Assembly (NCBI GenBank): GCA_046704665.1
Contig: JBJKRJ010000057.1
Location: forward strand, 12,030 to 76,029
Source of the DNA: Thermoplasmata archaeon
GTDB lineage: Archaea; Thermoplasmatota; Thermoplasmata; Lutacidiplasmatales; UBA184
Direction: 5' to 3'
Length of the DNA: 64,000 bases
Positions within the stretch are counted from its first letter, which is position 1, and each line of letters opens with the position of its first letter. The translations under genes were made by a program, and so were the position numbers. The notes below the pieces were generated by a model that made no database searches, was not told where the DNA came from, and was given only the letters and a program-made list of their open reading frames with translations. Positions 4,284 to 34,861 of the stretch are shown piece after piece.

Positions 4284-5945
4284 CTACGGGATGCGGAAGC
4301 GTGCGGTTCGGGCGAGCTCCATCGACTCCGGGTATCCGGCGTCCGCGTGCCGGGCGACCCCGATGCCCGGGTCGTTGTGGAGGACCCTCCCGATCCGTCG
4401 GTCGGCGTCCGGCGTCCCGTCCGCGACGACGACGAGGCCGGCGTGGATGGAGTTGCCGATCCCGACCCCACCCCCGTGATGGACGGAGACCCAGGTCGCT
4501 CCGCTCGCCACGTTGAGGAGCGCGTTGAGGATCGGCCAGTCCGCGATCGCGTCGGACCCGTCGCGCATCGCCTCGGTCTCGCGGAACGGGCTCGCGACGC
4601 TGCCCGTGTCGTGGTGATCTCGACCGATCGCAACGGGCGCGGAGACCTGCCCGTCCCGGACGAGCCCGTTCACAAGGTGGCCGAACTTCTCGCGCTCTCC
4701 GTAGCCCATGTAGCAGATGCGCGCCGGCAGGCCCTGGAACTTCACCCGCTCCCCGGCGAGACGTATCCACCGGCAGAGGTGTTCGTTCTCCGCGAACTCG
4801 CTCAGGATCATCCGGTCGATGCGCTGGATGTCGTCGGGTTCCCCGCTCAGGGCGAGCCAGCGGAACGGACCGCTGCCCACGGCGAAGAGCGGACGGATGT
4901 ACTTGGGGACGTAGCCTCCGATGTCAAAGGCGTTCGCGACCCCCGCATCCCGTGCCTGAGTGCGGAAGTTGTTCCCGTAATCGAACGCCTTCGAGCCGCT
5001 GCGGATCATCTCGAGGATCGCGCGGGCCTCCACGGCGATCGAGGCCCGGACCCGCGCGAGGTACCCCGGCAGGTCCGCGGCGCGCGCCCGCTCGGCCTCT
5101 TCCACCGTCAAGCCCTGGGGAATGTATCCGACGCGGAGGTCGTGGGCCGCCGTCTGGTCGCTCACGACGTCCGGGACGACCCCGCGTCGCACGATCTCAG
5201 GATAGATGTCGGCGGCGTTGGCCCGAAGTCCGATGGAGAGCGGGCGACGTTCGGCGACCGCCCGTCGCACGAGCTCGAGCGCCTCGTCCAGGGAATGGGC
5301 CTCGGTGTCCAGGTACCGGTGCTCGAGACGCCGGGAGATCGCCCGCGGGTCGACGTCGACGATCAGCCCGACGCCGTTCAGCAGCGTGATGGCGAGCGGT
5401 TGGGCACCGCCCATCTCGCCGAGACCCGACGTCAGGACCCACCGCCCGGCAAGATCGGGGGCGCCGAACTCGATCCGCGCGATCGAGGCCATCGTCTCGT
5501 AGGTCCCCTGAAGGATCCCCTGGGTCCCGATGTAGACCCACGAGCCCGCGGTCATCTGGCCGTACATCGTGAGCCCACGGCTCTCGAGCTCCCAGAAGAT
5601 GTCGTCCGTCGCCCACCGCGGAACGAGTAGGGCGTTCGCGATCAGCACGCGAGGCGCGTCCCGATGCGTGGGGAATATCCCCACCGGTTTTCCGGATTGG
5701 ACGAGCAGCGTCTCCTCCTCCGTGAGCGATTTCAGGGCCTCCACGATCCGGTCGAACGACTCCCAGTCCCGGGCGGCCTTGCCCCGACCCCCGTAGACGA
5801 TCAGATGCCGGGGGTCCCGGCCGACCTCCGGGTCCAGGTTGTTCATCAGGAGACGGAGGGCGGCCTCGGTGCCCCAGCTGCGGCAGTGGAGCTCCCGGCC
5901 GCGCGGAGCGGTCACGACGCGATTGGACTCGAGCGTGCGGGCCAT
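4284..5945 (-). CDS. hutU: Urocanate hydratase (urocanase)
   Basis: [30 protein letters not shown] and [15 protein letters not shown] closely match the HutU N-terminus. The start was moved to MARTLESN (ATG 5943-5945) to match HutU N-terminal spacing. The track ORF runs 4284-6002. Confidence 0.9.
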
Positions 5946-20127: not shown

Positions 20128-21906
20128 GTGGCCCGTATCGCGATCCTGCTCACCGACCGCTGCCACCCGAAGGAGTGCCAGTGGGAGTGCCAGGCCTACT
20201 GCCCCCCGGTGCGGATGGGTCAGGAGTGCATCGTCGAGGGTCCCCTCGGCCGCCCGGTCATCTCCGAGTCGCTCTGCATCGGTTGCGGGATCTGCGTCCA
20301 CAAGTGCCCGTTCGACGCCATCAAGATCCTCAACACCCCCGAGGCGGACGAGTCCGAGATCGTCCACCGGTACGGCTACAACGGGTTCCGCCTCTACCGC
20401 CTCCCGGTCCCGCCGGCGGCAGGGATCACCGGCCTCCTCGGTCCGAACGGGACCGGCAAGTCGACGGCGCTTCGGCTCCTCGCCGGGGTCGAGACCCCGA
20501 ACCTCGGCGCCTTCGAAACGCCGGGTGACTGGGCGAAGGTGCTGGAGCACTACCGCGGCACCGCCCTGCGCGCCCACTTCGAGCGGGTCGCGAAGGGCGA
20601 TCTACGAAGTGTGGTGAAGCCCCAGTACGTCGACCGGATCTCCGATGAACCCGTCACGGTCTCCGAGTACGTGGCGGGAGCCGGGGGAGCGACGGCGCGG
20701 GCGCTCGAGGACGTGGGGCTCTCGACCCGGGCCTCGCGGAAGCTCAGCGAGCTCTCGGGAGGAGAGCTCCAGCTCACCGCGATCGCGCGGACCCTGGCGA
20801 CCGACGCGGACCTCTACCTCGTCGATGAACCATCGAGCTACCTCGACATCATCCACCGGCTCCGCGTCGCGCGCGTCCTCCGACGGCTCGGAGCGACCAA
20901 GAGCGTCCTCGTCGTCGAACATGACTTGGGGCTCCTCGACTATCTCGCCGACACCGCGCACCTCCTCTACGGAGAGTCGGCGGCGTTCGGGGTCATCAGC
21001 CACCCGATCCCGATGCGGACCGCGATCAACACCTATCTCGGGGGCTATCTCAAGGACGAGAACGTCCGGTTCCGGACGGAACCGGTGCGGTTCGTCGCCC
21101 ATCCGCCGAAACCGCCGGCCCGGCAGAACGCGCTCGTGACGTTCTCCGTCCTCGAGAAGGAGTTCCCCGCCTTTCACCTCGCGGTCGGCGAGGGGATCCT
21201 CGCGAAGGGCGAGACCGTGGGGATCGTCGGGCCGAACGCGACCGGGAAGACGACGTTCGTACGCATGCTCGCCGGCGTGGAGACGCCGACCCGGGGGACG
21301 CCTCCGCCGGGAGTCACGGTGAGCTACAAGCCCCAGTACCTGCGCGCCACCCAGGAGGCGAGCCTCCGGGCGCGAGCCGAGGCGCTCGCGGGGGACCCGA
21401 CGTTCGACGCCAAGCTGTTCGAGCGCGAGCTCGTCCCCGGTCTGCACCTCGACGGGATCCTCGATGTCGCGCTCCCCGATCTCTCGGGCGGCGAGCTCCA
21501 GCGCGCCGCCGTCGCCCTCTCCCTCGCCCGGCCCGCGACGCTGTATCTCCTCGACGAACCCTCCGCCTACCTCGATGCCGACGAGCGCATGTCGATGGCC
21601 CGCCTCATCCGGCGCCAGGTCGAACGGCAGGCCGTGAGCGCGCTGGTCGTCGACCACGACGTCTACTTCGTCGACCTCGCCTGCGACGCCCTGATGGTCT
21701 TCCGTCCCGAGTCCGAGGACGGCTCGCGCGGCCGCGGCGATGGGCCGTTCCCGATGCGGGAGGGGATGAACCGGCTCCTTCGGACGGTCGATATCACCTA
21801 CCGCCGCGACGCCGAGACGCTCCGGCCCCGGATCAACCGCGAAGGTTCGGCGCTCGACCGCGAGCAGCGAGCGAAGGGCGAGTACTACTACGAGGCGGCC
21901 GCCTGA
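20128..21906 (+). CDS. ABCE1 / RNase L inhibitor (ribosome recycling factor)
   Basis: N-terminal 2x[4Fe-4S] domain (CHPKECQWECQAYCPP...CIGCGICVHKCP) followed by two ABC domains. This protein is archaeal/eukaryotic-specific. Confidence 0.9.
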   Translation: MARIAILLTDRCHPKECQWECQAYCPPVRMGQECIVEGPLGRPVISESLCIGCGICVHKCPFDAIKILNTPEADESEIVHRYGYNGFRLYRLPVPPAAGITGLLGPNGTGKSTALRLLAGVETPNLGAFETPGDWAKVLEHYRGTALRAHFERVAKGDLRSVVKPQYVDRISDEPVTVSEYVAGAGGATARALEDVGLSTRASRKLSELSGGELQLTAIARTLATDADLYLVDEPSSYLDIIHRLRVARVLRRLGATKSVLVVEHDLGLLDYLADTAHLLYGESAAFGVISHPIPMRTAINTYLGGYLKDENVRFRTEPVRFVAHPPKPPARQNALVTFSVLEKEFPAFHLAVGEGILAKGETVGIVGPNATGKTTFVRMLAGVETPTRGTPPPGVTVSYKPQYLRATQEASLRARAEALAGDPTFDAKLFERELVPGLHLDGILDVALPDLSGGELQRAAVALSLARPATLYLLDEPSAYLDADERMSMARLIRRQVERQAVSALVVDHDVYFVDLACDALMVFRPESEDGSRGRGDGPFPMREGMNRLLRTVDITYRRDAETLRPRINREGSALDREQRAKGEYYYEAAA

Positions 21907-21966: not shown

Positions 21967-22593
21967 ATGACGATGGCTGCTCGGACCTCTCCCGCCCCCC
22001 GACGCCCCCCGGTATCGAAGGACGCCCCCCCGAGCGTGCGTTCGCGGATCGACCCGAAGGGGCGCTACCACGCCTGGGGGCAGATCTCCTACACGATCGT
22101 CGGGGCGTACGTCTTCCTGTTCGTGGTCTTCCTGTTCCTCTTCGATCGGTACGCCGGCGCCGTCTGGTGGGCCCCCTGGCTGATCTCGATCCTTCTCCTC
22201 GGCTCGCTGGTCCGGTACGTTTCCACGCACTACCGGATCGACGAGCTCCATCTCGTCGCGTCGAAGGTGCTCGGCGGGGCACGGATCCGCCTTGACGAGG
22301 TGCGCCGGATCGAGTATCTCTCGCTCCGGGACCTCGCGCCCACAGCCGGTATCTTCGGCTCGTGGGGATGGAGGGGACGGATGTGGAGCCCCATCATCGG
22401 CCGGTTCGATGCGGTCTACACCGACTCGGCCGTGGGACTTCTCGTCACCGCGGGAGAGGTTCCGCTCTATCTCTCCCCCCGGGACCCCGGGGCGTTCGCC
22501 CGGGAGCTCTCCCGGAGGGTCCGGTCGTACACGGGCCGGCTCTCGGTCGACGTCGGGGACCCCCTCGCGGGCTCGGAGCCGGCGGCCGACTGA
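21967..22593 (+). CDS. Membrane protein with a bacterial-type PH (YdbS/YdbT-like) domain
   Basis: Two N-terminal TM helices precede a PH-like region (...YRIDELHLVASKVLGGARIRLDEVRRIEY...). Confidence 0.5.
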   Translation: MTMAARTSPAPRRPPVSKDAPPSVRSRIDPKGRYHAWGQISYTIVGAYVFLFVVFLFLFDRYAGAVWWAPWLISILLLGSLVRYVSTHYRIDELHLVASKVLGGARIRLDEVRRIEYLSLRDLAPTAGIFGSWGWRGRMWSPIIGRFDAVYTDSAVGLLVTAGEVPLYLSPRDPGAFARELSRRVRSYTGRLSVDVGDPLAGSEPAAD

Positions 22594-22643: not shown

Positions 22644-24128
22644 TCAGTAGGAGAGGACGCTCGGGTCGACGCGCTCGGCCCACGCCTGGAGCCCGCCGCG
22701 CAGGTTCCGTACGTTCTGGAAGCCGAGGTCGAGGAGCGAGCGGACCGCGTAGGCCGAGCGGGTGCCGACCGAGCAGATCAGCACCACCGCGCGGGCCCGC
22801 GTGAGCTCGTCCAGGCGTTCGGCGAGCTCTCCGCGCGGGATGCGCAGGGCCCCCGGGAACTGCGAGAGCTCCCATTCCATCGGCTCGCGCACATCCACGA
22901 CCAGCGGAGGGTCCGAGGAGGCGAGCGCCGTCGCGAGCGCTTCCGGCTCGATCGACGGCACGGAGCGGCCGACCGACTCCGCATCGATCCCCGCGACGCC
23001 GCAGAACGCCGGGTAGTCGATGAGGCCCTTCTGCGTCGCCTTCGGACCGCAGAGGACGCAGTCGGGGTTCTTGCGAAGCTGGAGCTCCCGGAACCGGAGC
23101 CCGAGGGCATCGAACAGCAGGAGACGGCCGAGGAGCGGCTCGCCCTGGCCGAGGATGAGCTTCACGGTCTCGGTCGCCTGGAGCACTCCGATGACCCCGG
23201 GCAGGACCCCGAGCACTCCCGCCTCGGCGCACGACGGGACGAGGTCGGGCGGAGGAGGTTCCGGGTACAGGCACCGGTAGCACGGGCCCCGGCGGGCGTC
23301 GAAGACGCTCACCTGGCCCTCGAAACGGTAGATCGAGCCGTAGACGTTCGGCTTCCCGAGGAGGACGGCGGCGTCGTTGATGAGGTAGCGGGTCGGGAAG
23401 TTGTCGGTCCCGTCCACGACCACATCGTAAGGGCGCAGGACATCGAGCGCGTTCTCGGAGGTGAGCCGCTCCTCGTGCCGGTGGATCCGAACGCCGGGAT
23501 TGAGGGCGGAGAGACGTTCCCGCGCGGCGTCGAGCTTCGGTCGGCCGATGTCGGCGGTCGTGTACAGGACCTGGCGCTGGAGGTTCGTCACATCGACGCG
23601 ATCGAAGTCGACCAGGCCGATCTCTCCGACGCCGGCCGCCGTGAGATAGAGCGCGGCCGGTGCGCCGAGACCGCCGGCCCCGACCAAGAGCACCTTCGCG
23701 TGTTGGAGCTTTTTCTGGCCGGCGACCCCGACCTCGGGGAGCAGGAGATGACGGCTGTACCGACGCAGCTCCTCGGGCGAGAACTTCTCGCGCGCGCTCT
23801 CGGGCAGCGGGTCCGCGACGTCCCGGGGGATCGAGGGAGCGCTCGCGGGGGCCCCGCCGGCGATCGCGGGCACGATCGACACGACGTCGCCTTCCTGCAC
23901 CGGCGTCGCCTCCCGCTCGAGGTACCGGACGTCCTGGTCGTTCAGGTACAGGACGACGAAGCTCCGGAGCCGGCCCTCGGGGCTGAAGAGATGGCGTTTC
24001 AGCTCGGGATGGACGTTCGTGAGCTCCTGGACGAGCCCTCCGACGGTCGACCCCTCCACGGGGACCTCGGCCTGGCCGCCCGTGAACGTGCGCAGCGGGG
24101 TCGGCACCCGGACCGTTACCTTGGACAT
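22644..24128 (-). CDS. Fusion protein of a CysO/MoaD-type sulfur-carrier domain (ending ...AIAGG), a linker, a MoeZ/MoeB-like E1 adenylyltransferase and a rhodanese domain
   Basis: Residues 1-92 (MSKVTVRVPTPLRTFTGGQAEV...VVLYLNDQDVRY...GDVVSIVPAIAGG) closely parallel M. tuberculosis CysO. The E1 domain has the nucleotide-binding loop [13 protein letters not shown] and two CxxC Zn motifs (CYRC, CVLC). The rhodanese domain has the active-site CSVGTRS. The start is set at MSKV (ATG 24126-24128); the track ORF continues upstream to 24851. Confidence 0.8.
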   Translation of the reverse strand: MSKVTVRVPTPLRTFTGGQAEVPVEGSTVGGLVQELTNVHPELKRHLFSPEGRLRSFVVLYLNDQDVRYLEREATPVQEGDVVSIVPAIAGGAPASAPSIPRDVADPLPESAREKFSPEELRRYSRHLLLPEVGVAGQKKLQHAKVLLVGAGGLGAPAALYLTAAGVGEIGLVDFDRVDVTNLQRQVLYTTADIGRPKLDAARERLSALNPGVRIHRHEERLTSENALDVLRPYDVVVDGTDNFPTRYLINDAAVLLGKPNVYGSIYRFEGQVSVFDARRGPCYRCLYPEPPPPDLVPSCAEAGVLGVLPGVIGVLQATETVKLILGQGEPLLGRLLLFDALGLRFRELQLRKNPDCVLCGPKATQKGLIDYPAFCGVAGIDAESVGRSVPSIEPEALATALASSDPPLVVDVREPMEWELSQFPGALRIPRGELAERLDELTRARAVVLICSVGTRSAYAVRSLLDLGFQNVRNLRGGLQAWAERVDPSVLSY

Positions 24129-24154
24129 CGCTCGGTATCCTCTCCGCGCCCCTT

Positions 24155-24639
24155 TTAGGGCCTTGCTAACCCCTTCGCCACCGGTCCCGCCCCGGTGGGA
24201 GCTCCCTCGGTCAAGAGCGGGACCTCCTCGAAGACCTGCCGGTCCGGGTCGAGCTCGAACGCGCGGGTGTCGGCGACGCGGCGTGCGGCGACTCCGAGCA
24301 CGAGATAGGAGTACCACGGCCAGGCGTGCTCCTGGTCGAACTGCGAAGGGCGGGCGGGATGGTCCGGGTGGGAGTGGTAGAACCCGACCACGAGCCGGCC
24401 GGTCCGCTCGTTCCGTTGTTCGGCGGCGCGGAGCTCCTCCGGCCGGACGAGGAAACGGCGCCGTCGCTCCCCCTCGAACTCGTTCGGAGCGGGTTCGACC
24501 GCGACGATCGATCGCGGCTCGGCAGGATCGGTCGGATCGGCCGCGGCGATCAGGAAACCGCAACACTCGTCCGGGTAGGTCTCGCGGGCGTGGGCCTCCA
24601 TCGCGTCCCGGAGCTCCCGGACGACCCGGACGGGTCTCA
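24155..24639 (-). CDS. JAMM/MPN+ metalloprotease (Mec+-like deubiquitinase-type isopeptidase)
   Basis: The JAMM motif GFYHSHPDHPARPSQFD (HxHx7Sx2D) is present with an upstream Glu, in a 161-aa protein. The ATG overlaps the cysM stop (ATGA). The track ORF 24155-25444 is an over-extension. Confidence 0.8.
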
Positions 24640-25533
24640 TCGCGCCTCTCCGGCGGGGAGGGTGTGGCCGGAGTCCGGAAGGATCGTGACGACCACCGAA
24701 CCGGGGACGGACGCGCCGATCGCCGAGGCGACGAGGACGGCCGCCGCGGCGGACATGCCCACCTCGAGTCCTTCCTCCCGGGCCAGGCGAGCGCGCATCT
24801 CCTCGGCGGGCTCGGTGTCGATCCGGACCGTCCGGTCGACCACGCGCGCATCGTACGTCGAGGGCCGGGCGGCTGTCGGCAGATGCTTCAATCCTTCGAG
24901 CCCGTGCATCGGCCCGGTCGGTTCGACCCCGACGACCTCGAGGGAGGACCGTTGCTCCTTGAGATAGCGACCGGTCCCGGTGACCGTGCCGCCGGTGCCG
25001 ACCCCCGCGACAAAGTGCGTGATCCGGCCCTGGGTCTGCCGCCAGATCTCGGGTCCGGTCGAAGCATAGTGGGCCGCCGGATTGGCCGGATTGTTGTACT
25101 GGTCCGGGTAGAAGTACCGGTTCGGGTCCTCCCGGGCGCGGCGCCGTGCCTCCCGCTGTGATCCGTCGGTCCCTTCCAACGGATCCGTGAAGACGATCCG
25201 CGCACCGAAAGACTGGATCCGTTCGACGCGGGTGGGGTGCGCGTTCCTCGGTAGAACGAGCTCCACCGGGAAACCGAGCCGCGCCCCCAGCATGGCGTAG
25301 GCGACCGCGGTGTTCCCGCTCGAGGCGTCGATGAGCGTCCGCGCCGGGTCCAGCCGGCCGTCGGCGATCGCCTGCCGGACGATACCGAACGCCGCGCGGT
25401 CCTTCACCGAGCCGGTCGGGTTGCGGAACTCGGCCTTTCCCCACAGCTCGAAGCCCCCTCCGAGCGCGTCCGCGATGCGCTGCAACGGTACGAGCGGCGT
25501 TCCGCCCACCGAGCGGAGGAGCGGGTCGTCCAT
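24637..25533 (-). CDS. cysM: Cysteine synthase, CysM-type (PLP-dependent; O-phosphoserine or O-acetylserine sulfhydrylase)
   Basis: The PLP-Lys motif NPTGSVKDRAAFGIV and the Gly-rich loop GVGTGGTVTGTGRYL are present. The start is chosen at MDDPLLRSVGGTPLVPLQ (ATG 25531-25533). An alternative start at M95 is possible. Confidence 0.8.
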   Translation of the reverse strand: MDDPLLRSVGGTPLVPLQRIADALGGGFELWGKAEFRNPTGSVKDRAAFGIVRQAIADGRLDPARTLIDASSGNTAVAYAMLGARLGFPVELVLPRNAHPTRVERIQSFGARIVFTDPLEGTDGSQREARRRAREDPNRYFYPDQYNNPANPAAHYASTGPEIWRQTQGRITHFVAGVGTGGTVTGTGRYLKEQRSSLEVVGVEPTGPMHGLEGLKHLPTAARPSTYDARVVDRTVRIDTEPAEEMRARLAREEGLEVGMSAAAAVLVASAIGASVPGSVVVTILPDSGHTLPAGEAR

Positions 25534-25651: not shown

Positions 25652-26380
25652 CTAGTCGGCCCGCATCCCGACGTGGGACTCTCGCGCACCCGGGGGCCGG
25701 GCCTCCAGACGGAACCGTTCGGTGGGGAAGGCGGCGAGGATCGGGACGAGATGTGTGCACCGTACCCCGCCCCGTCCGATCGAGTCCTGAAGGTCGACCC
25801 CCACCTGGCCGAGCAGGGCCTCGGTGAGGTGCTTATCGAAGACATCGCACAGGAGGTACGGGTGCGAGAGCGCGCTGTGGCGGAAGACACAGTTCGTCCG
25901 GACGATGCGGAGCGTGCCGTCCTTCGTTTCCTGCGACGTGCAGCGGAACCCGAGGCGATTGAGCGATTTCACGAGGTTCCGGATCCGTTCCGCCGGCGTC
26001 CCGGTCTTCGGGATCTCCTTCGCGATCACCCGGGCCATCCGGCGGGCCGATTCCGCGAAGAGCGCACTGACGTACCCCTCGCCCTCCCGGTCGAGGAGCT
26101 CTTCGACGACGGTGTCGAGGATGAGGTCGTACTGCTTCGGGAAGAGCTCCTGGCCCTCGCCGGTCAGCATGTACCGCTTGCGAGGGCGACCGACGCCTTC
26201 CCGATGGAAGGCAGCGACGACCAGCCCGCGGCCCTCCATCCTCTCGAGGTGACCGCGCGCCGCGCTCTCTTGGATCCCGATCTTCTTCGCGAGGTCCCGC
26301 GCCGTCCGCGGTGCCAGCGCCAGTTCTTCGAGGATCCTTCCGCGCGTCCCTTCGAGCAGCTCTTCCTTCGAGATCGTCAT
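25652..26380 (-). CDS. ArsR/DeoR-type winged-helix regulator with a C-terminal four-Cys domain (SufR-like, putative [4Fe-4S] sensor)
   Basis: N-terminal HTH (...RGRILEELALAPRTARDLAKKIGIQESAARGHLERMEG...). The C-terminal cysteines are spaced C-x16-C-x13-C-x29-C. It is divergent from sufC and heads the cysM operon. Confidence 0.6.
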   Translation of the reverse strand: MTISKEELLEGTRGRILEELALAPRTARDLAKKIGIQESAARGHLERMEGRGLVVAAFHREGVGRPRKRYMLTGEGQELFPKQYDLILDTVVEELLDREGEGYVSALFAESARRMARVIAKEIPKTGTPAERIRNLVKSLNRLGFRCTSQETKDGTLRIVRTNCVFRHSALSHPYLLCDVFDKHLTEALLGQVGVDLQDSIGRGGVRCTHLVPILAAFPTERFRLEARPPGARESHVGMRAD

Positions 26381-26438: not shown

Positions 26439-26461
26439 ACGGTATCGGCTGGATTCTTCGA

Positions 26462-27241
26462 ATGGTCGCGACGTCACTGCCGACCGGGCACACCCTGGTC
26501 GTCGAGGACCTCCACGCCGAGGTCGCCGGGAAGGAGATCCTCCGGGGGGTCGATCTCACGCTGAAGAGCGGGGAGCTCACGGCCCTCATGGGGCCGAACG
26601 GCTCCGGAAAGAGCACGCTCGCCTATGCCCTGATGGGGCATCCGAAGTACAAGGTGACGAAGGGTCGCGCGCTCCTGGACGGCCAGGACCTCCTCGGGCT
26701 CAGCGTGGAGAAGCGATCCCGCGCCGGCCTGTTCCTCGGGTTCCAGTACCCGCAGGAGGTCTCGGGGCTCTCGCTCTCCAAGTTCCTCTGGACCGCCTAC
26801 ATGCAGCGGCACACGGCGGAGACGGCCGACACGAAGCACTACGACGACGAGCTGCGGACGCACCTCGACTACCTGGGGATGGACCCGGCGCTATTGAAGC
26901 GTTCGCTCAACGAGGGATTCTCGGGGGGAGAGAAGAAGCGTGTCGAGGTCCTCCAGATGGCGACCCTCCATCCGGTCTTCGCCATCCTCGACGAGCCGGA
27001 CTCGGGGCTCGATATCGACGCGGTGCGGGCGGTCGGGGAGACCGTCGCGAAGCTCCACCGGCCCGACGCGGGGATCCTGGTCATCACGCACTACCAGCGG
27101 ATCCTGAAGTACCTGAAGCCCGACCGGATCCACGTCATGGTCGATGGCGCGATCGCGCGCTCGGGCGGGCGCGAGCTCGCCGAAGAGCTCGAAGCGAAGG
27201 GATACGACTTCGTTCGTCCACTGGTCTCGACGCAAAGCTAA
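26462..27241 (+). CDS. sufC: Fe-S cluster assembly ATPase SufC
   Basis: Walker A GPNGSGKSTL, signature FSGGEKKRVEVLQ, and the HYQRILKYL motif typical of SufC. The start is MVATSLP; the track ORF 25310-27241 is over-extended. Confidence 0.9.
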   Translation: MVATSLPTGHTLVVEDLHAEVAGKEILRGVDLTLKSGELTALMGPNGSGKSTLAYALMGHPKYKVTKGRALLDGQDLLGLSVEKRSRAGLFLGFQYPQEVSGLSLSKFLWTAYMQRHTAETADTKHYDDELRTHLDYLGMDPALLKRSLNEGFSGGEKKRVEVLQMATLHPVFAILDEPDSGLDIDAVRAVGETVAKLHRPDAGILVITHYQRILKYLKPDRIHVMVDGAIARSGGRELAEELEAKGYDFVRPLVSTQS

Positions 27242-27284
27242 GGAGTCCCCCGGGGCGCTCGACCGGGCCAAGAGGGTCGGAGCG

Positions 27285-28541
27285 ATGGATGTCGAACGGA
27301 TCCGCAGAGACTTTCCGCTGCTGTCCCGATCGGAGAACGGCCGGCCCCTGATCTACCTCGACTCCGCGGCGACCTCGCAGAAGCCGGATTCCGTCATCTC
27401 CGCCGAAGGCCGGTTCTACGAGCAGGTCAACTCGAACGTGCGGCGCGGTGTCTACGCCCTCAGCGTCGAAGCGACGGAGGCGTGGGAAGCGGCTCGCGAG
27501 CACGTCGCCCACTTCCTGCGCGCCCGTCGATCCTCCGAGGTCGTGTTCCTCCGGGGGACGACCGAGGCGCTCAACGTCCTCGCGACCAGCCTCGGTCGAT
27601 CGGTCCTCGGCAAGGGCGATCGGGTCGTCGCTACGGTGATGGAGCACCACTCGAACATCGTCCCGTGGCACTTCCTGAGAGAGTACGCGGGCATCGACCT
27701 CGCCTTCGTCGGGATCGACGACGACGGGAAGCTCCGGCTCGGGGAGCTCGATCGGCTGCTCGATCGACGGACCAAGGTGGTCACCGTGACCCATGTCTCG
27801 AACGTGCTCGGCACCGTCAACCCGATCCGCGAGATCGCGGACCGGGCCCACGCGGTCGGGGCGCTTGTCATCCTGGACGCCGCGCAGTCGGCGCCGCACC
27901 TTCCGATCGATGTCGAAAAGCTCGGCGTCGACTTCCTCGCGTTCTCCGGTCACAAGGTCCTCGGTCCGATGGGGATCGGCGCGCTGTGGGGGCGCGCCGA
28001 GCTCCTCGAACGACTGCCTCCGTCGGTCGGAGGGGGGGAGATGATCCGGGAGGTCCACCAGGACCGGGTGAGCTACGCGGAGGTTCCGGCCAAGTTCGAG
28101 GGGGGCACCCCGAACGTCGCCGGTGCGATCGGCCTCTCGGCGGCGCTCGCCTACCTCGAGCGGATCGGCTGGGAGGACCTGCGCGCCCACGAGCAACGAC
28201 TGCAGACGACCGCGTTGCGGCTGGGCTCCGAGCGTCTCGGCGACGGCTTCCAGGTCGTCGGCCCCGCGGATCCCCGGGAGAGGGAGGCCGTCCTCGCGTT
28301 CCAGCTGAAGGGGGTCCACCCGCACGACATCGCGAGCCTCCTCGACGCGCGGGGGATCTGCGTGAGGGCCGGGCACCACTGTGCGCAACCGCTGATGGAC
28401 CGTCTCGGCGTGCCGGCGCTCACGCGCGCGAGCCCGTACCTCTACAACACCGAAGCGGAGATCGAGCAGCTGTTCGATGCGCTCTCGGAGATCTATCAGC
28501 TGTTCCGACGCTCGTCGTCCCCCGCGCCCACCGCCGCGTGA
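27285..28541 (+). CDS. sufS: Cysteine desulfurase SufS (class V aminotransferase)
   Basis: PLP-Lys AFSGHKVLGPMG and active-site loop RAGHHCAQPL. The start is at MDVERIRRDFPLL. Confidence 0.85.
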   Translation: MDVERIRRDFPLLSRSENGRPLIYLDSAATSQKPDSVISAEGRFYEQVNSNVRRGVYALSVEATEAWEAAREHVAHFLRARRSSEVVFLRGTTEALNVLATSLGRSVLGKGDRVVATVMEHHSNIVPWHFLREYAGIDLAFVGIDDDGKLRLGELDRLLDRRTKVVTVTHVSNVLGTVNPIREIADRAHAVGALVILDAAQSAPHLPIDVEKLGVDFLAFSGHKVLGPMGIGALWGRAELLERLPPSVGGGEMIREVHQDRVSYAEVPAKFEGGTPNVAGAIGLSAALAYLERIGWEDLRAHEQRLQTTALRLGSERLGDGFQVVGPADPREREAVLAFQLKGVHPHDIASLLDARGICVRAGHHCAQPLMDRLGVPALTRASPYLYNTEAEIEQLFDALSEIYQLFRRSSSPAPTAA

Positions 28542-28674
28542 CCCGGTCCGATCGGAACGCGCGAGGAGCCCGAACGCTCTCGGGCGCGACCCCGTCCGGG
28601 CGCCGATGTCGCGACGGAGCGACGCCCACGCTCCCCTCGAGCGAGCGTCCGTCGCGTCCGGGACGACCTCCAAT

Positions 28675-28682
28675 TTAAATAC
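28675..28682 (+). promoter_or_regulatory. Archaeal TATA box (tttaaata) upstream of sufB
   Basis: caatttaaatacactg lies about 35 nt before the sufB ATG at 28714. Confidence 0.5.
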
Positions 28683-28713
28683 ACTGATGTGATGGAATTC
28701 ACCGAGGTCATGT

Positions 28714-30123
28714 ATGGCGCAGGCGGGTGACATCGCTCCCATCGATTTCTCTCGGTACGACTTCAAGAATCCCGAGACCTACCGGCTGCGGATCCCGAAG
28801 GGTCTCTCCCGGGACGTCGTCGCGCAGATCTCGAAGTTCAAGAACGAGCCGGACTGGATGCTCGAGTACCGGCTTCGCGCCTACGACCACTTCGTCGAGC
28901 GGGCGATGCCCGACTGGGGACCCAGTCTCTCGGACATCGATTTCGACGCCTACACCTACTACGCGAACCCCCTGCTCGAGGGGGAGACCAAGCGGAAGTG
29001 GGAGGACCTTCCGGCCGACATCAAGAACACCTTCGACAAGCTCGGGATCCCGAAAGCGGAACGGGAGTTCTTCGGCGGCGTCGGCGCCCAGTACGACAGC
29101 GGTACCGTCTACCACAAGATCCGCGAGGACCTCTCCGCGAAGGGTGTCATCTTCTGCGACACCGACACCGCGGTGCGGGAGCATCCCGACATCGTCCGCA
29201 AGTACTTCGGGAAGATCGTTCCGTACAACGACAACAAGTTCTCGGCCCTCAACAGCGCGGTCTGGTCCGGGGGCAGCTTCGTCTACGTTCCGCCCGGCGT
29301 CGACGCGGGCATCCCGCTCCAGGCGTACTTCCGCATCAACGCGAAGAACGTGGGCCAGTTCGAGCGGACGCTGATCATCGCCGACCAGGGGGCCAAGGTG
29401 CACTACCTCGAGGGATGCACGGCACCGATTTACTCGACCGACTCCTTGCACGCGGCCGTCGTGGAGGTAGTGGCCGAGCCGAACGCGCGTCTGCGGTACA
29501 CCACGGTCCAGAACTGGTCGAAGAACGTCTACAACCTCGTCACGAAGCGCGCGGTCGCCTACGAGAACGCGCTCGTCGAGTGGGTCGACGGCAACATGGG
29601 CTCGAAGGTGACGATGAAGTACCCGTCGGTCTACCTTCGCGGCCGGGGCGCCCGGGCCGACATCCTCTCGGTCGCGTTCGCGAGCGAGGGGCAGGTCATC
29701 GATTCCGGTGCGAAGGCCGTCCACTCCGCCGCGGACACCTCCAGCAAGATCATCTCGAAGTCGATCGCGATCCGGGGGGGCCAGACGAGCTACCGCGGCC
29801 TGCTCCACGTCGCGCCCGGGGCGACCGGGGTCAAGGCGGCCGTCCGCTGCGACGCGCTCCTTCCCGACGAACGGGGCCGTTCGGACACCTACCCCTACAA
29901 CGAGATCCACGAAGAGGACGCCACGATCACGCACGAAGCGGTCGTCGGGAAGATCGGCGAGGAGCAGATCTTCTATCTGATGAGCCGCGGACTCTCCGAG
30001 TCCGATGCGATCCACCTGATCCTGATGGGATTCCTCGCGGAGTTCTCGAAGGAGCTTCCCGTCGACTACGCCCTCGAGCTGAACCGATTGATCCAGCTCG
30101 AGATGATCGGCGCGGTCGGGTAG
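28714..30123 (+). CDS. sufB: Fe-S cluster assembly protein SufB
   Basis: 469 aa. The SufB/SufD domain includes ...LIIADQGAKVHYLEGCTAP... and the C-terminal ...FYLMSRGLSESDA... motif. Confidence 0.9.
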   Translation: MAQAGDIAPIDFSRYDFKNPETYRLRIPKGLSRDVVAQISKFKNEPDWMLEYRLRAYDHFVERAMPDWGPSLSDIDFDAYTYYANPLLEGETKRKWEDLPADIKNTFDKLGIPKAEREFFGGVGAQYDSGTVYHKIREDLSAKGVIFCDTDTAVREHPDIVRKYFGKIVPYNDNKFSALNSAVWSGGSFVYVPPGVDAGIPLQAYFRINAKNVGQFERTLIIADQGAKVHYLEGCTAPIYSTDSLHAAVVEVVAEPNARLRYTTVQNWSKNVYNLVTKRAVAYENALVEWVDGNMGSKVTMKYPSVYLRGRGARADILSVAFASEGQVIDSGAKAVHSAADTSSKIISKSIAIRGGQTSYRGLLHVAPGATGVKAAVRCDALLPDERGRSDTYPYNEIHEEDATITHEAVVGKIGEEQIFYLMSRGLSESDAIHLILMGFLAEFSKELPVDYALELNRLIQLEMIGAVG

Positions 30124-30167
30124 ATCGCCCCCCGTGGGGGCCGCTCCTACGCGCTCCTCCGCGGAGC

Positions 30168-31562
30168 TCACCGGAGCTTGGTGTCGAACCGCCACTCGGG
30201 GCTCGTGTCGGTCCCCGTGACGGAGAGCGCCGGCAGCGCCGGGAAGTGGCCCGGCTCCCAGACCACGTCGCGTCCCTCCCAGCGGCTCGCGAGCGTCGGG
30301 TACAGGATCTCCCGTAGCCCCGAGATCGGGGCCCGCTCGTGCACGTAGGAAAGGAAGCCTTCTCCGATCATCCGGACCGCATCGTCCCGGGACATCCCGC
30401 GCGACTCGAGGTAGAAGACCTTCTCCGGGTCGACCGGGGCGACGGACGTCGAATGGGTCGCCTTCACGTCGCGGCAGAGGATCTCGAGGATCGGGATCGT
30501 GTCGGACCGTGCGCCGCGGGAGAGCAGCATCGCATGCTCGGAAACGTAGGCGACCGTCTTGTTCGCGCTCGGCTCGATGCGGACGAGCCCCCGGCTCATG
30601 CCCCGGGCCTGGTCGGTGAAGACCCCGCGCGTGATCGACTGGGCGTGGGTGTCGGTACCGACGTGGGTCACGTCGACCGAACTGTCGTACGACTGGTCCC
30701 TCGCCCCATAGAACGTCTGCAGGTCGTCGGCGGCCGACCCCTGGCCGGCCATCGTCGTATGGTTGCGCACCCGCGTGCGGAAGCCGCCGAGGCCGTTCCA
30801 GATCCAGGCGAGCCGGGCGTCGGCCCCCACGGTGGCGTCCCGACGGTAGACCGAGACGGTCCGCAGGTCCGGCGCATGAAGCGTGAGGTAGGCGACCTTC
30901 GAGCGGACACCGAGGTCGAGGTCGGTCGCCGATGCGTAGAGTCGCTGGCCGTCCGGAACCGGCGAGGTCGAGTAGGCCTCTTCGGTCAGGAGGACCTGGG
31001 TCTCGGCCCCGGCCCGGACCGAGCGACGGACCGAGATCGCCTCGTGGGGACGGGAGAGTACGGTGAACTCCTGCACGCGGATCGGCGCGGCGTGACCGTC
31101 CGGTACCTCGAGCCGGTACCCTCGGTTCAGGAGGGTCATCGCGAGAGCGGAGAGCCGGTCCTCGAACGACTCGGATCCCCGGAGGAACGCGGCCAGCTTG
31201 CCGTCCGACGCATTCCAGAGCTCGGAGAGCGTTTCGACCCTGACCCCGGCCGCGCGCAGCCCCTCGGGCAGGTCGACCCGGGTGCCCGACGCGTCGTGCA
31301 CGACCCGGAGCGCGCCGGGGAGCGCGGGGGGAAGTTCGACGGGAGAGGAACCGAGCTCAAGGTCGATCCCGGCCAGGTCGACGCCGGCGAAGTAGCCGTA
31401 GCCCCGGTAGAGCGGGTTCGGCTCGAGCGGGAGTTCTCGGAATCGCTCATACGATTCGACCCGTCGGCGGCCGAACGGCGCGGGATCGCCGAGCTCCCGG
31501 GAGAGCGCACGCACCTGCTCGAAGGAGAGCCAGTCCCGGAACCGTGGTGCCGCGGAAGCCAT
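30168..31562 (-). CDS. sufD: Fe-S cluster assembly protein SufD
   Basis: SufB/D fold (…KVFYLESRGMSRDDAVRMIGEGF…). The start is set at MASAAPRFRDW (ATG 31560-31562), 26 nt downstream of a TATA box. It is convergent with sufB. Confidence 0.8.
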   Translation of the reverse strand: MASAAPRFRDWLSFEQVRALSRELGDPAPFGRRRVESYERFRELPLEPNPLYRGYGYFAGVDLAGIDLELGSSPVELPPALPGALRVVHDASGTRVDLPEGLRAAGVRVETLSELWNASDGKLAAFLRGSESFEDRLSALAMTLLNRGYRLEVPDGHAAPIRVQEFTVLSRPHEAISVRRSVRAGAETQVLLTEEAYSTSPVPDGQRLYASATDLDLGVRSKVAYLTLHAPDLRTVSVYRRDATVGADARLAWIWNGLGGFRTRVRNHTTMAGQGSAADDLQTFYGARDQSYDSSVDVTHVGTDTHAQSITRGVFTDQARGMSRGLVRIEPSANKTVAYVSEHAMLLSRGARSDTIPILEILCRDVKATHSTSVAPVDPEKVFYLESRGMSRDDAVRMIGEGFLSYVHERAPISGLREILYPTLASRWEGRDVVWEPGHFPALPALSVTGTDTSPEWRFDTKLR

Positions 31563-31584
31563 TGGATTTAGACACTCGGATGTG

Positions 31585-32890: not shown

Positions 32891-34270
32891 TCAGCGCGCC
32901 CGCTTCGGACGGAATCGCGCCGTGAAGTGGGGGAGGCGCTCCGGGCGGTACGACATCTCGTAGCCTCCGATCGACGACCTCCGCGCGTAGACCCGGGCGA
33001 TGACGTCCGCGACGTAGGCGAGGTGGCTCGCCGTGTAGGTGCGCCGGGGGATCGCGAGCCGCACCAGTTCGAGCGAGCGGCCCGTGCCGTCCGGTCCCGG
33101 CGGGAACATGATCGACCCGATCTCGACCGATCGCACCCCTCCCTCGCGATAGATCTCGACGGTGAGCGCCTGGCCCGGAAGGTCGTCGGTCGCGAGGTGG
33201 GGAAGGAACCGGCCGACGTCGAGGTAGACCCCGTGCCCCCCGGCCGGACGGAGGATCGGGACGCCGGCCCGCTCGAGCCGCTCGGCAAGGAACTGTACCT
33301 GGCCGATCCGGTGGTCGAGGTAGTCGAGGTCCATCGCCTCCTCGAGCCCGACCGCGATCGCTTCGAGGTCCCGGCGGGCGAGGCCGCCGTACGTCGGGAA
33401 CCCTTCGTAGAGGATCAGGCTCTCCTTCATGCGGTCGGCGAGCGTCGCGTCCCGGGTCGCCACGAACCCGCCGATGTTGACGAGCCCGTCCTTCTTGGCG
33501 CTCATGGTCGCGCCGTCGGCGAGATCGAAGAACGCCCGCCCGATCTCGGCGATCGACTTCGACTCCATCCCCGGCTCCCTTCGGCGGACGAAATAGGCGT
33601 TCTCCGCCCAGCGGCACATGTCGAGGTAGACCGGGATCCGGTGGGCCCGGGCCAGTCGCGCGACCTCGCGGAAGTTCGCGAGAGCGACCGGTTGGCCGCC
33701 GCCGGTGTTGTTCGTGATCGTGACCATGACGAGCGGGATGCGGTCCGCCTGCTCCCGGTCGAGGAGCGCCTCGAGCGCCCCGAGGTCCATGTTCCCCTTG
33801 AACGGGAAGTCGCTCTCGAGGTCGTACGCCTCCGGGCCGGCGAGGTTGACCGGCGTCGCCCCCTGGTGGACGACGTGGGCCTGGGTCGTGTCGAAGTGCA
33901 TGTTGTTCGGGATGATCGTCCCGGGACGCGCGAGGGCCTCGAACAGGAGGTGTTCGGCCGCCCGGCCCTGGTGCGTCGGGAGGATGTAGGGAAAGCCGGT
34001 GATCGACCGGACGGTCGCTTCGAAGCGGGCGAAGTTCCGGCTCCCGGCGTAGGTCTCGTCCCCGACCATGAGCGCCGCCCACTGGCGATCGCTCATCGCC
34101 CCGGTACCGGAGTCGGTGAGAAGATCGATGCGGATGTCGTCGGAGCGCAGGTTGAACAGGTTGAAGTGGGCCCGCTCGAGGGCCCGGTCCCTCTCCTCCC
34201 GTGACGGATTGGGCAGGTGCTCGACGACCTTGACTCGGTACGGTTCGAACGGAAGCTCGGGAGCCCTCAC
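32891..34270 (-). CDS. tnaA: Tryptophanase / tyrosine phenol-lyase (beta-eliminating lyase family)
   Basis: …PEPFRVKVVEHLP… at the N-terminus, the PLP-Lys region …SAKKDGLVNIGG… and an overall length of 459 aa match TnaA/TPL. A GTG start sits 26 nt from a TATA-like box. Confidence 0.8.
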   Translation of the reverse strand: MRAPELPFEPYRVKVVEHLPNPSREERDRALERAHFNLFNLRSDDIRIDLLTDSGTGAMSDRQWAALMVGDETYAGSRNFARFEATVRSITGFPYILPTHQGRAAEHLLFEALARPGTIIPNNMHFDTTQAHVVHQGATPVNLAGPEAYDLESDFPFKGNMDLGALEALLDREQADRIPLVMVTITNNTGGGQPVALANFREVARLARAHRIPVYLDMCRWAENAYFVRRREPGMESKSIAEIGRAFFDLADGATMSAKKDGLVNIGGFVATRDATLADRMKESLILYEGFPTYGGLARRDLEAIAVGLEEAMDLDYLDHRIGQVQFLAERLERAGVPILRPAGGHGVYLDVGRFLPHLATDDLPGQALTVEIYREGGVRSVEIGSIMFPPGPDGTGRSLELVRLAIPRRTYTASHLAYVADVIARVYARRSSIGGYEMSYRPERLPHFTARFRPKRAR

Positions 34271-34468: not shown

Positions 34469-34861
34469 ATGGCCTGGGACATGTACCAGGAGATCATTCT
34501 CCAGCACTATCGTTCGCCGAGGAACTTCGGCCCGCTGGAGGGAGCGGACCATGAGGGGGAGGAGTCGAATCCGCTCTGCGGCGACCATATCACGATCCGT
34601 CTGAAGGTCGATCCGTCGACCCAGAAGATCGATGCCGTGAAGTTCGACGGGGACGGCTGCGCGATCAGTGTCGCGAGCAGCTCGATGCTCACCGAGAAGC
34701 TCCAGGGGCTGACGCTGGAGGCCGCGGGAAAGCTGACCCGCGACGATGTCCTCCAGATGCTGGGGATCCCCCTCTCTCCGATCCGCGTGAAGTGTGCGCT
34801 GACCGGCTTCTCCGCCCTCGGTCGAGCGCTCCACCCGGAAGCGGTCACGGCCGCCCCGTAG
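34469..34861 (+). CDS. sufU: SufU / NifU-N-like Zn-dependent sulfur transfer protein
   Basis: NPLCGDHITIRLKVD...FDGDGCAISVASSSML...VKCALTG has the three conserved Cys and the SufU-type insertion. Confidence 0.8.
   Translation: MAWDMYQEIILQHYRSPRNFGPLEGADHEGEESNPLCGDHITIRLKVDPSTQKIDAVKFDGDGCAISVASSSMLTEKLQGLTLEAAGKLTRDDVLQMLGIPLSPIRVKCALTGFSALGRALHPEAVTAAP

Follow-up and report, generated by a model that had tools for sequence, protein, structure and literature searches.

The 64,000-nucleotide stretch analyzed here (hereafter the window) belongs to a Thermoplasmata archaeon (assembly GCA_046704665.1, contig JBJKRJ010000057.1, positions 12,030 to 76,029) and carries, tightly packed on its minus strand, a cysM-like gene, a JAMM metalloprotease gene, and a fusion gene in which a CysO-like sulfur carrier is joined in frame to an E1 adenylyltransferase and a rhodanese domain (Table 1). 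The ATG of the JAMM gene overlaps the TGA of the cysM-like gene by 4 bp (ATGA), 26 bp separate the JAMM stop codon from the fusion gene, and a GGAGAGG motif lies 10 nt 5′ of the fusion-gene ATG. These genes had been delineated in a reading of the DNA made without database searches (the sequence-only reading), whose coordinates, gene order, and ATGA overlap were exact, and whose domain calls (ThiS, ThiF, rhodanese, JAMM, and PALP) were confirmed by Pfam profile searches.

The first 92 residues of the fusion protein had been read as a CysO-like domain ending in AIAGG, and this parallel extends across the whole domain. Residues 3-92 align end to end with positions 2-93 of Mycobacterium tuberculosis CysO (3dwg_C, E 7e-18), with Gly91-Gly92 coinciding with the CysO C-terminus, and they also align with an Amycolatopsis ThiS/MoaD protein, on whose C-terminus the two glycines likewise fall (4n6e_B, E 1.5e-16). 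The third-best solved match, the Thermus thermophilus MoaD-related protein 1v8c_A (E 5e-11), is a 168-aa chain in which a second domain comes after a beta-grasp domain terminating in AGG (residue 87), although this second domain is small and not an E1. Among solved structures, the E1 part matches Uba4 (6yub, E 2e-60), ThiF (1zfn, E 9e-59), and MoeB (1jw9, E 2e-56), and the rhodanese domain aligns with that of Uba4. The E1 Rossmann loop GAGGLG (G150/G152/G153/G155), two CxxC pairs (C283/C286 and C357/C360), crossover-loop Cys300, and the rhodanese loop C452-x2-G455-x-R457 are all invariant across 73 homologues; the loop, the CxxC pairs, and the rhodanese active-site Cys had been named in the sequence-only reading. 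Against the NCBIfam MoeZ model NF005902, the fusion protein scores 464 bits, below the equivalog cut-off of 647. NCBI names these fusion proteins "molybdopterin-synthase adenylyltransferase MoeB" because the PRK08762 model passes its cut-off on the E1 part alone.

The two other proteins retain their catalytic motifs. The JAMM motif is intact (E25 ... H88-S-H90-x7-S98-x2-D101) and matches the MPN+ consensus quoted in PMC8832034, with 2kcq_A, a Mov34/MPN/PAD-1 family protein, as the best solved relative (E 4e-22). The CysM-like protein carries the pyridoxal phosphate (PLP)-lysine motif SVKDR and finds its best solved relatives in Salmonella/E. coli CysM (2jc3, E 3e-64). Its match to M. tuberculosis CysM (Rv1336, 3dwg_A) is weaker (E 2e-49) and reaches only residue 282 of 323, the archaeal protein being without the C-terminal tail region.

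Table 1 Features of the carrier-E1 module and its surroundings (positions in the window; residues of the fusion protein)
Feature	Position	Strand	Remarks
CysM-like PLP-dependent cysteine synthase, 298 aa	24637..25533	-	First gene of the three; PALP PF00291, E 1.2e-69
JAMM/MPN+ (Prok-JAB) metalloprotease, 161 aa	24155..24640	-	Prok-JAB PF14464, E 3.2e-22
Fusion gene, 494 aa plus stop	22644..24128	-	CysO-like carrier, linker, E1 adenylyltransferase, rhodanese (Pfam)
Carrier domain, residues 1-92	23853..24128	-	ThiS/MoaD/CysO beta-grasp; ThiS PF02597 at 6-92, E 2.4e-15; end P87-A-I-A-G91-G92
Predicted cleavage after Gly92	23853-23858 (G91-G92 codons)	-	End of carrier domain
Linker, residues 93-115	23784..23852	-	APASAPSIPRDVADPLPESAREK; unconserved, predicted disordered
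E1 (ThiF/MoeB/MoeZ-type) adenylation domain, about residues 116-380	22989..23783	-	ThiF PF00899 at 124-357, E 7e-86
Rhodanese domain, about residues 385-494	22647..22976	-	Rhodanese PF00581 at 397-485, E 6.5e-16; loop C452-S-V-G-T-R457
ArsR-family helix-turn-helix regulator	25652..26380	-	HTH_5, E 2.4e-6; 118 bp upstream of cysM-like gene, co-directional
sufC-sufS-sufB cluster	26441-31571	+	Divergent from ArsR-family gene
ABCE1/RLI gene	20128-21906		Archaeal content
Bacterial-PH-domain membrane protein gene	21967-22593	+	Convergent with fusion gene
Beta-eliminating lyase gene	32891-34270	-	Tryptophanase/tyrosine phenol-lyase family
Weak carrier-like match	34092-34262		E 0.23; inside beta-eliminating lyase gene
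NifU/IscU-like scaffold gene	34469-34861	+	

The Gly-Gly junction and the series of carrier forms

In the gene product, Gly92 is followed by 402 more in-frame residues, and the carrier carboxylate is not free. Both glycines are invariant in all 120 close homologues and at all 64 fused genome loci; VPAIAGG is essentially fixed among the former, while the latter read P-[S/A]-I-A-G-G from P6 to P1 and have S, A, or T at P1′ in 84% of cases. Beyond this junction, linker positions 93-94 are more conserved (top residue frequency 0.62-0.84 among the 120 homologues) than positions 95-115 (only 0.17-0.44), and conservation returns at F116...LRRYSRHLLLPEVG. Linker length across the 64 fused loci ranges from 3 to 32 residues (median 12), with a composition rich in A, P, S, E, and T. 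An AlphaFold2 model of the fusion protein, built from a 73-sequence alignment, comprised three confident domains and a predicted local distance difference test score below 50 at residues 88-113; as the monomer reached a predicted template modelling score of 0.55, the relative placement of the domains was left uninterpreted. Conservation and model together delimit a predicted disordered linker of about 23 residues (93-115), shorter than the approximately 35 residues first proposed.

The fusion is widespread and not rare. Using one genome per species, a GTDB scan yielded at least 594 confirmed stretches (of 600 listed) spanning many bacterial phyla, and a protein search of an NCBI-derived collection recovered an identical 494-aa entry (P0001) and 119 other clusters that are 67-88% identical and consist of ThiS+ThiF+Rhodanese proteins of 483-504 aa, i.e., at least 120 protein clusters sharing the architecture. 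When the 150 best representatives at 50% identity are considered, roughly a dozen of these clusters have the carrier at the N-terminus. All locus counts given here were taken from the best 80 genome loci of the GTDB scan, whose archaeal hosts are Thermoplasmata, Sysuiplasma, and Methanomassiliicoccales, and whose bacterial hosts include Gemmatimonadota, Acidobacteriota (Bryobacterales, Solibacteraceae, and others), Eisenbacteria, Armatimonadota, Ignavibacteria, and Actinomycetota. Among the matches listed, the nearest homologues of the fusion protein carry the name Thermoplasmata archaeon, the closest relatives outside Thermoplasmata are bacterial, and the family is mostly bacterial. The window itself has a G+C content of 64-74% (about 70% near the locus) and contains an ABCE1/RLI gene.

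Carrier and E1 are both present at 76 of the 80 loci, and the boundary between them takes three forms. The two are fused in frame at 65 loci, separated by a stop codon inside the linker at eight, and separated by a stop exactly after the GG at three. The stops within the linker leave tails of 3-14 residues after the GG (ARK, ASK, LKE, CVNRAG, AGNKRAR, LRGENIGD, CCPCGCCCCPR, and one more). In a rough neighbour-joining tree, built without support values, the eight tailed forms are a single clade nested among fused forms, which suggests that they arose by secondary fission within a dispensable linker. These 11 interrupted loci of 76 are what could be cited in favour of the fusion being an assembly, frameshift, or gene-calling artefact, with a stop normally following the GG. 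The frame is, by contrast, uninterrupted at 65 of the 76 loci, from several phyla; many independent assemblies contribute the same uninterrupted frame to at least 120 protein clusters, and the identical 494-aa product was already on record. Recurrence across hundreds of independent assemblies and many phyla thus leaves the artefact explanation with a negligible probability, and we regard the architecture itself as near-certain.

Several members of this series stand apart. One tailed carrier (L045, Terriglobales, about 5280-5660) ends in a cysteine-rich tail, AGG-CCPCGCCCCPR-stop, that is unlike the other tails and might bind metal, have redox activity, or reflect a quirk of sequencing. In Gemmatimonas aurantiaca (L080, 7181-11474), the ThiS-family carrier is a free 91-aa protein with GG as its last residues, and the E1-rhodanese gene starts 4 bp after the carrier gene, with a ThrC-like PALP gene and a GHMP (homoserine-kinase-like) gene upstream and neither JAMM nor CysM nearby; L048 and L078 also have the split form. 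Carrier-less E1-rhodanese homologues (61-67% identity) with no JAMM neighbour occur in Thermoplasmata YP1.bin82 (L055, 10001-11131), in two Planctomycetia loci (L075 and L077), where CysM is still directly upstream, and in Caldarchaeum (L076). Other domain orders were found among related polyproteins: JAB-ThiS-Rhd-ThiF (P0136, 634 aa), JAB-Ubl-ThiF-Rhd (P0157, 619 aa; Ubl, ubiquitin-like), ThiS-Rhd-ThiF (P0122, 486 aa), and ThiS-ThiF without rhodanese (P0135, 377 aa). All four polyproteins keep the GG at the end of the carrier, and they appear to represent independent fusions to two different E1 layouts.

JAMM linkage and a putative carrier-releasing sulfur relay

To describe the genomic context of these forms, neighbours were counted by profile searches of six-frame open reading frames (ORFs) at loci with upstream sequence. 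A JAMM gene lies directly upstream of the fusion at 58 of 63 fused loci, elsewhere within 10 kb at two, and is absent from that interval at three; CysM is found upstream at 49 and elsewhere within 10 kb at two more. All eight tailed loci have JAMM directly upstream, and seven have CysM upstream. At the three loci where the carrier ends exactly at GG, no JAMM was found within 10 kb and no CysM upstream.

E1 enzymes adenylate only a free C-terminal carboxylate, as established for MoeB/ThiF/Uba4 chemistry. Any carrier function of the fused domain therefore requires that the Gly92-Ala93 bond be cut first. The earlier argument that an internal Gly cannot be adenylated, and that the carrier would have to be released, is supported. 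We propose that the three genes probably form a sulfur relay based on a protein thiocarboxylate, as in the M. tuberculosis CysO/MoeZ/CysM/Mec+ pathway, with the carrier as the N-terminal pro-domain of its own E1. The 494-aa precursor would fold as three domains with a flexible linker between, and the adjacent JAMM metalloprotease would hydrolyze the Gly92-Ala93 bond, separating a MoeZ-like E1-rhodanese enzyme from a 92-residue carrier whose Gly-Gly carboxylate is then free. The E1 domain would then adenylate the carrier C-terminus, and the adenylate would be converted to a thiocarboxylate via a persulfide on rhodanese Cys452 (or by sulfide). Next, the CysM-like PLP enzyme would take the thiocarboxylate as nucleophile onto a serine-derived aminoacrylate, and, after an S-to-N acyl shift, the same JAMM protease would hydrolyze carrier-Cys to cysteine and regenerated carrier. 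We infer the release step from chemistry, comparative genomics, and the precedent of MoaD-MoaE fusions, and the steps from adenylation onwards by analogy with the characterized mycobacterial pathway.

Carrier release by JAMM is, in our view, quite likely, because an invariant GG sits beside a freely varying, predicted disordered linker, because tailed and free orthologues exist, because the JAMM linkage is very tight, and because some polyproteins include the protease itself. With moderate confidence, cysteine would be the main product. A fusion of this kind would guarantee synthesis of carrier and E1 in a 1:1 ratio and make carrier activity depend on the protease.

Removal of residues that block a carrier GG by an operon-encoded JAMM protease is known from the QbsE/QbsD and HcyS/HcyD systems, where 1-2 extra residues follow the GG and the end product is a siderophore or homocysteine. 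The eight tailed relatives, with 3-14 residues after the GG, resemble these carriers, whereas in the fusion the "extension" is a 402-residue enzyme. A further system, PdtH/PdtG, corresponds to operon type 4a in PMC1779556. The sequence-only reading had named QbsE/QbsD as a known case of JAMM-dependent maturation, yet cleavage of linear fusions is also experimentally established: Deinococcus MoaD-MoaE is cut by DRJAMM, which leaves a C-terminal Gly and is required for molybdenum cofactor (Moco) synthesis, and HvJAMM1 cleaves linear SAMP1 fusions (PMC8832034). Cleavage after GG is needed for activity of linear carrier fusions (PMC8832034, PMC4443979, PMC4326299), and M. tuberculosis MoaX must be cleaved to be active (PMC4326299). 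Deinococcus MoaD-MoaE, Haloferax SAMP1-MoaE, and MoaX all share with the present fusion a ThiS/MoaD-type domain with an internal GG upstream of a pathway enzyme. In those systems the enzyme is MoaE, the downstream sulfur acceptor; in the present fusion it is the E1, which acts upstream as the activating enzyme and is translated in one chain with its substrate, and cleavage is predicted.

Several points weigh against this model. JAMM adjacency is also expected from a Mec+ role in CysO-Cys hydrolysis and is not proof of precursor processing, and for the carrier-E1 family cleavage, thiocarboxylate, and cysteine formation are all predictions. Three of the 63 fused loci have no JAMM within 10 kb. 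The contrast between JAMM presence and carrier state is confounded by the concurrent loss of CysM at the three GG-stop loci; given this loss and their differing thrC-like/thrB-like context, we downgraded the absence of JAMM there (0/3) as proof of a maturation role. Two Thermoplasmata loci, L003 (8857-11452) and L005 (8794-11440), have arsR-JAMM-fusion with no cysM within 10 kb, which marks the JAMM-fusion pair as the conserved core and implies that cysteine may not be the only or main product. The CysM-like protein falls below the equivalog cut-off of its best NCBIfam model (cysM, TIGR01138; 300 vs. 394 bits), and its substrate may be either O-acetylserine or O-phosphoserine. Finally, coverage of the host genome amounts to 64 kb, and a free carrier may be encoded elsewhere in the genome.

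This last point bears on an alternative in which the beta-grasp domain is never released and serves the E1 in docking, in regulation, or as a pseudo-substrate, a separate free ThiS/MoaD being the true carrier and JAMM only recycling carrier-Cys. Iyer, Burroughs and Aravind (2006) observed that a solo ThiS usually accompanies Ubl-ThiF fusions, which implies another function for the fused Ubl, and suggested a docking/regulatory-type role for the Campylobacter-type fusions (PMC1779556); the extent of host sequence inspected and the three fused loci without nearby JAMM would fit as well. The Campylobacter-type domain, however, was described as distinct from ThiS and accompanied by a solo ThiS in a thiamine operon setting, whereas the domain here is a full-length CysO homologue with an invariant GG. 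An uncleaved domain would have no reason to keep this GG before a variable linker, and in some orthologues the carrier is encoded by a gene of its own, with a short tail or none. No second CysO-like ORF was found in the window by searching for ORFs ending in GG, by tblastn, or with a family hidden Markov model, as the sequence-only reading had noted for small carrier genes, and none was found within 10 kb at any of the 76 loci. The one weak carrier-like match in the window lies inside the beta-eliminating lyase gene and was rejected. With no thiamine genes seen among the annotated window neighbours either, we set aside membership in the Campylobacter-type group and consider a never-released domain unlikely.

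Alternatively, a housekeeping protease or self-cleavage might release the carrier, with JAMM acting only in a Mec+-like manner on the carrier-cysteine adduct. The three fused loci without adjacent JAMM would be compatible with this, as would MoaX, which requires cleavage at its GG by a protease not established in the sources covered (PMC4326299). The fusion is nevertheless more tightly linked to JAMM than to CysM (58/63 vs. 49/63), JAMM stays where CysM is absent, and JAMM is physically fused to carrier-E1 in some relatives. Moreover, JAMM enzymes are the only proteases known to cleave behind the GG of ThiS/MoaD-type domains; QbsD and HcyD are examples. HvJAMM1 and DRJAMM provide the further cases (PMC8832034). 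Release by another protease is, on this evidence, quite improbable.

A different question is whether the main output is cysteine at all, since the thiocarboxylated carrier might feed molybdopterin, tRNA thiolation, or Fe-S-linked sulfur trafficking, or be conjugated in a SAMP-like manner with JAMM as deconjugase. In mycobacteria, MoeZR is shared by the Moco and cysteine pathways (PMC3227635), archaeal SAMPs have two functions (PMC2948915), and the L003 and L005 loci do without cysM. The module also lies beside a SUF operon in Thermoplasmata: an ArsR-family gene occupies the same position in L001-L005 and L007, facing the sufC-sufS-sufB cluster. This gene is a possible regulator of the module, its membership being uncertain, and the conserved arrangement of arsR, (cysM), JAMM, and fusion beside SUF in Thermoplasmata relatives suggests co-regulation with Fe-S cluster assembly. 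On the other side, CysM is the immediate upstream partner in the window, overlapping JAMM by 4 bp, and lies upstream at 49 of the 63 fused loci. For the SAMP-like form in particular, which the sequence-only reading had entertained, all three archaeal models stayed below cut-off (SAMP1 NF041918, 45 vs. 60 bits; UbaA NF047750, 329 vs. 450; desampylase NF041370, 71 vs. 130), no E2-like gene was seen among the annotated window neighbours, and the closest relatives outside Thermoplasmata are bacterial in a mostly bacterial family; membership in the SAMP/UbaA/desampylase system was therefore rejected. A main output other than cysteine retains a low probability. The comparative evidence, taken as a whole, favours JAMM-dependent release.

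The remaining neighbours comprise the bacterial-PH-domain membrane protein gene, which is kept downstream of the fusion in L001-L003 and L005, and the beta-eliminating lyase and NifU/IscU-like scaffold genes beyond the SUF cluster.

Relation to known systems and significance

The module shares its four functional parts with the M. tuberculosis system of CysO (Rv1335), CysM (Rv1336), Mec+ (Rv1334), and MoeZ (Rv3206c): a GG-ending ThiS/MoaD-type carrier, a JAMM hydrolase, a CysM-like PLP enzyme, and an E1 that bears a rhodanese domain at its C-terminus. It also has the compact cysM-JAMM-carrier order of the actinobacterial operon (types 4c/4d, PMC1779556). Unlike in M. tuberculosis, the carrier is covalently fused to the E1, so that proteolytic maturation would be required, the E1 is encoded inside the operon and not elsewhere in the genome, the CysM is nearer the enterobacterial enzyme and lacks the tail region, and the host is an archaeon.

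Much of this has been anticipated. Iyer et al. described operon type 4c, combining ThiS/MoaD, E1-rhodanese, JAB, and cysteine synthase in hosts that include Solibacter usitatus and Salinibacter ruber, and put forward JAB as the protease that liberates the C-terminus of fused ThiS/MoaD (PMC1779556). The same study recorded Ubl-ThiF fusions in Campylobacter and in Pelobacter, the latter alongside a cysteine synthase and an O-acetylhomoserine sulfhydrylase, and Makarova and Koonin (2010) reported Ubl-E1 fusions in Thaumarchaeota, shared with bacteria (PMC2948915). These proteins have, like the present fusion, a beta-grasp domain N-terminal to an E1 Rossmann domain; unlike it, their E1s were not reported with a rhodanese plus an adjacent JAMM. 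The release mechanism of the sequence-only reading is thus a specific case of a published prediction. The domains, the CysO parallel, the operon, and the chemical argument of that reading are supported, while rarity of the fusion, novelty of JAMM-mediated release, and the SAMP-like role are not. For a CysO-type carrier fused to a MoeZ-type E1, no explicit description or experiment was found in the literature covered, which did not extend to Burroughs et al. 2009 on the E1-like superfamily, and an earlier description is possible. Papers on Borg and jumbo elements that mention CysO/JAMM or ThiS-ThiF proved irrelevant to the carrier-E1 fusion.

The feature is an ordinary member of a large, publicly visible, mis-annotated family, and a fused variant of a known sulfur-carrier system. 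It does not define a new class of system, since operons of this type, their chemistry, and the notion of processing are already established; its value lies in a clean natural series for JAMM maturation and in the correction of "MoeB" annotations. The fused, tailed, and free carriers offer a ready set for defining JAMM specificity. If JAMM does cut the carrier from its own E1, the family would be a prokaryotic example in which a ubiquitin-like protein is synthesized joined to an enzyme from its pathway and then matured by JAMM, formally following the same logic as eukaryotic ubiquitin precursors and deubiquitinases. A more speculative extension, to which we give little weight, is that attachment to the E1 acts as a zymogen-type control point, with JAMM, perhaps under the ArsR-family regulator and SUF coordination, gating the free carrier, and with the carrier in Thermoplasmata serving more than cysteine, e.g., Fe-S/tRNA sulfur or SAMP-like tagging. 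If so, this would be a regulated, multi-output sulfur and ubiquitin-like module and not a simple fused biosynthetic operon. The "MoeB" annotation, meanwhile, hides both the carrier and a likely role in cysteine synthesis, and a sulfur-assimilation route may consequently be overlooked when the metabolism of Thermoplasmata, Acidobacteriota, and Gemmatimonadota is reconstructed.

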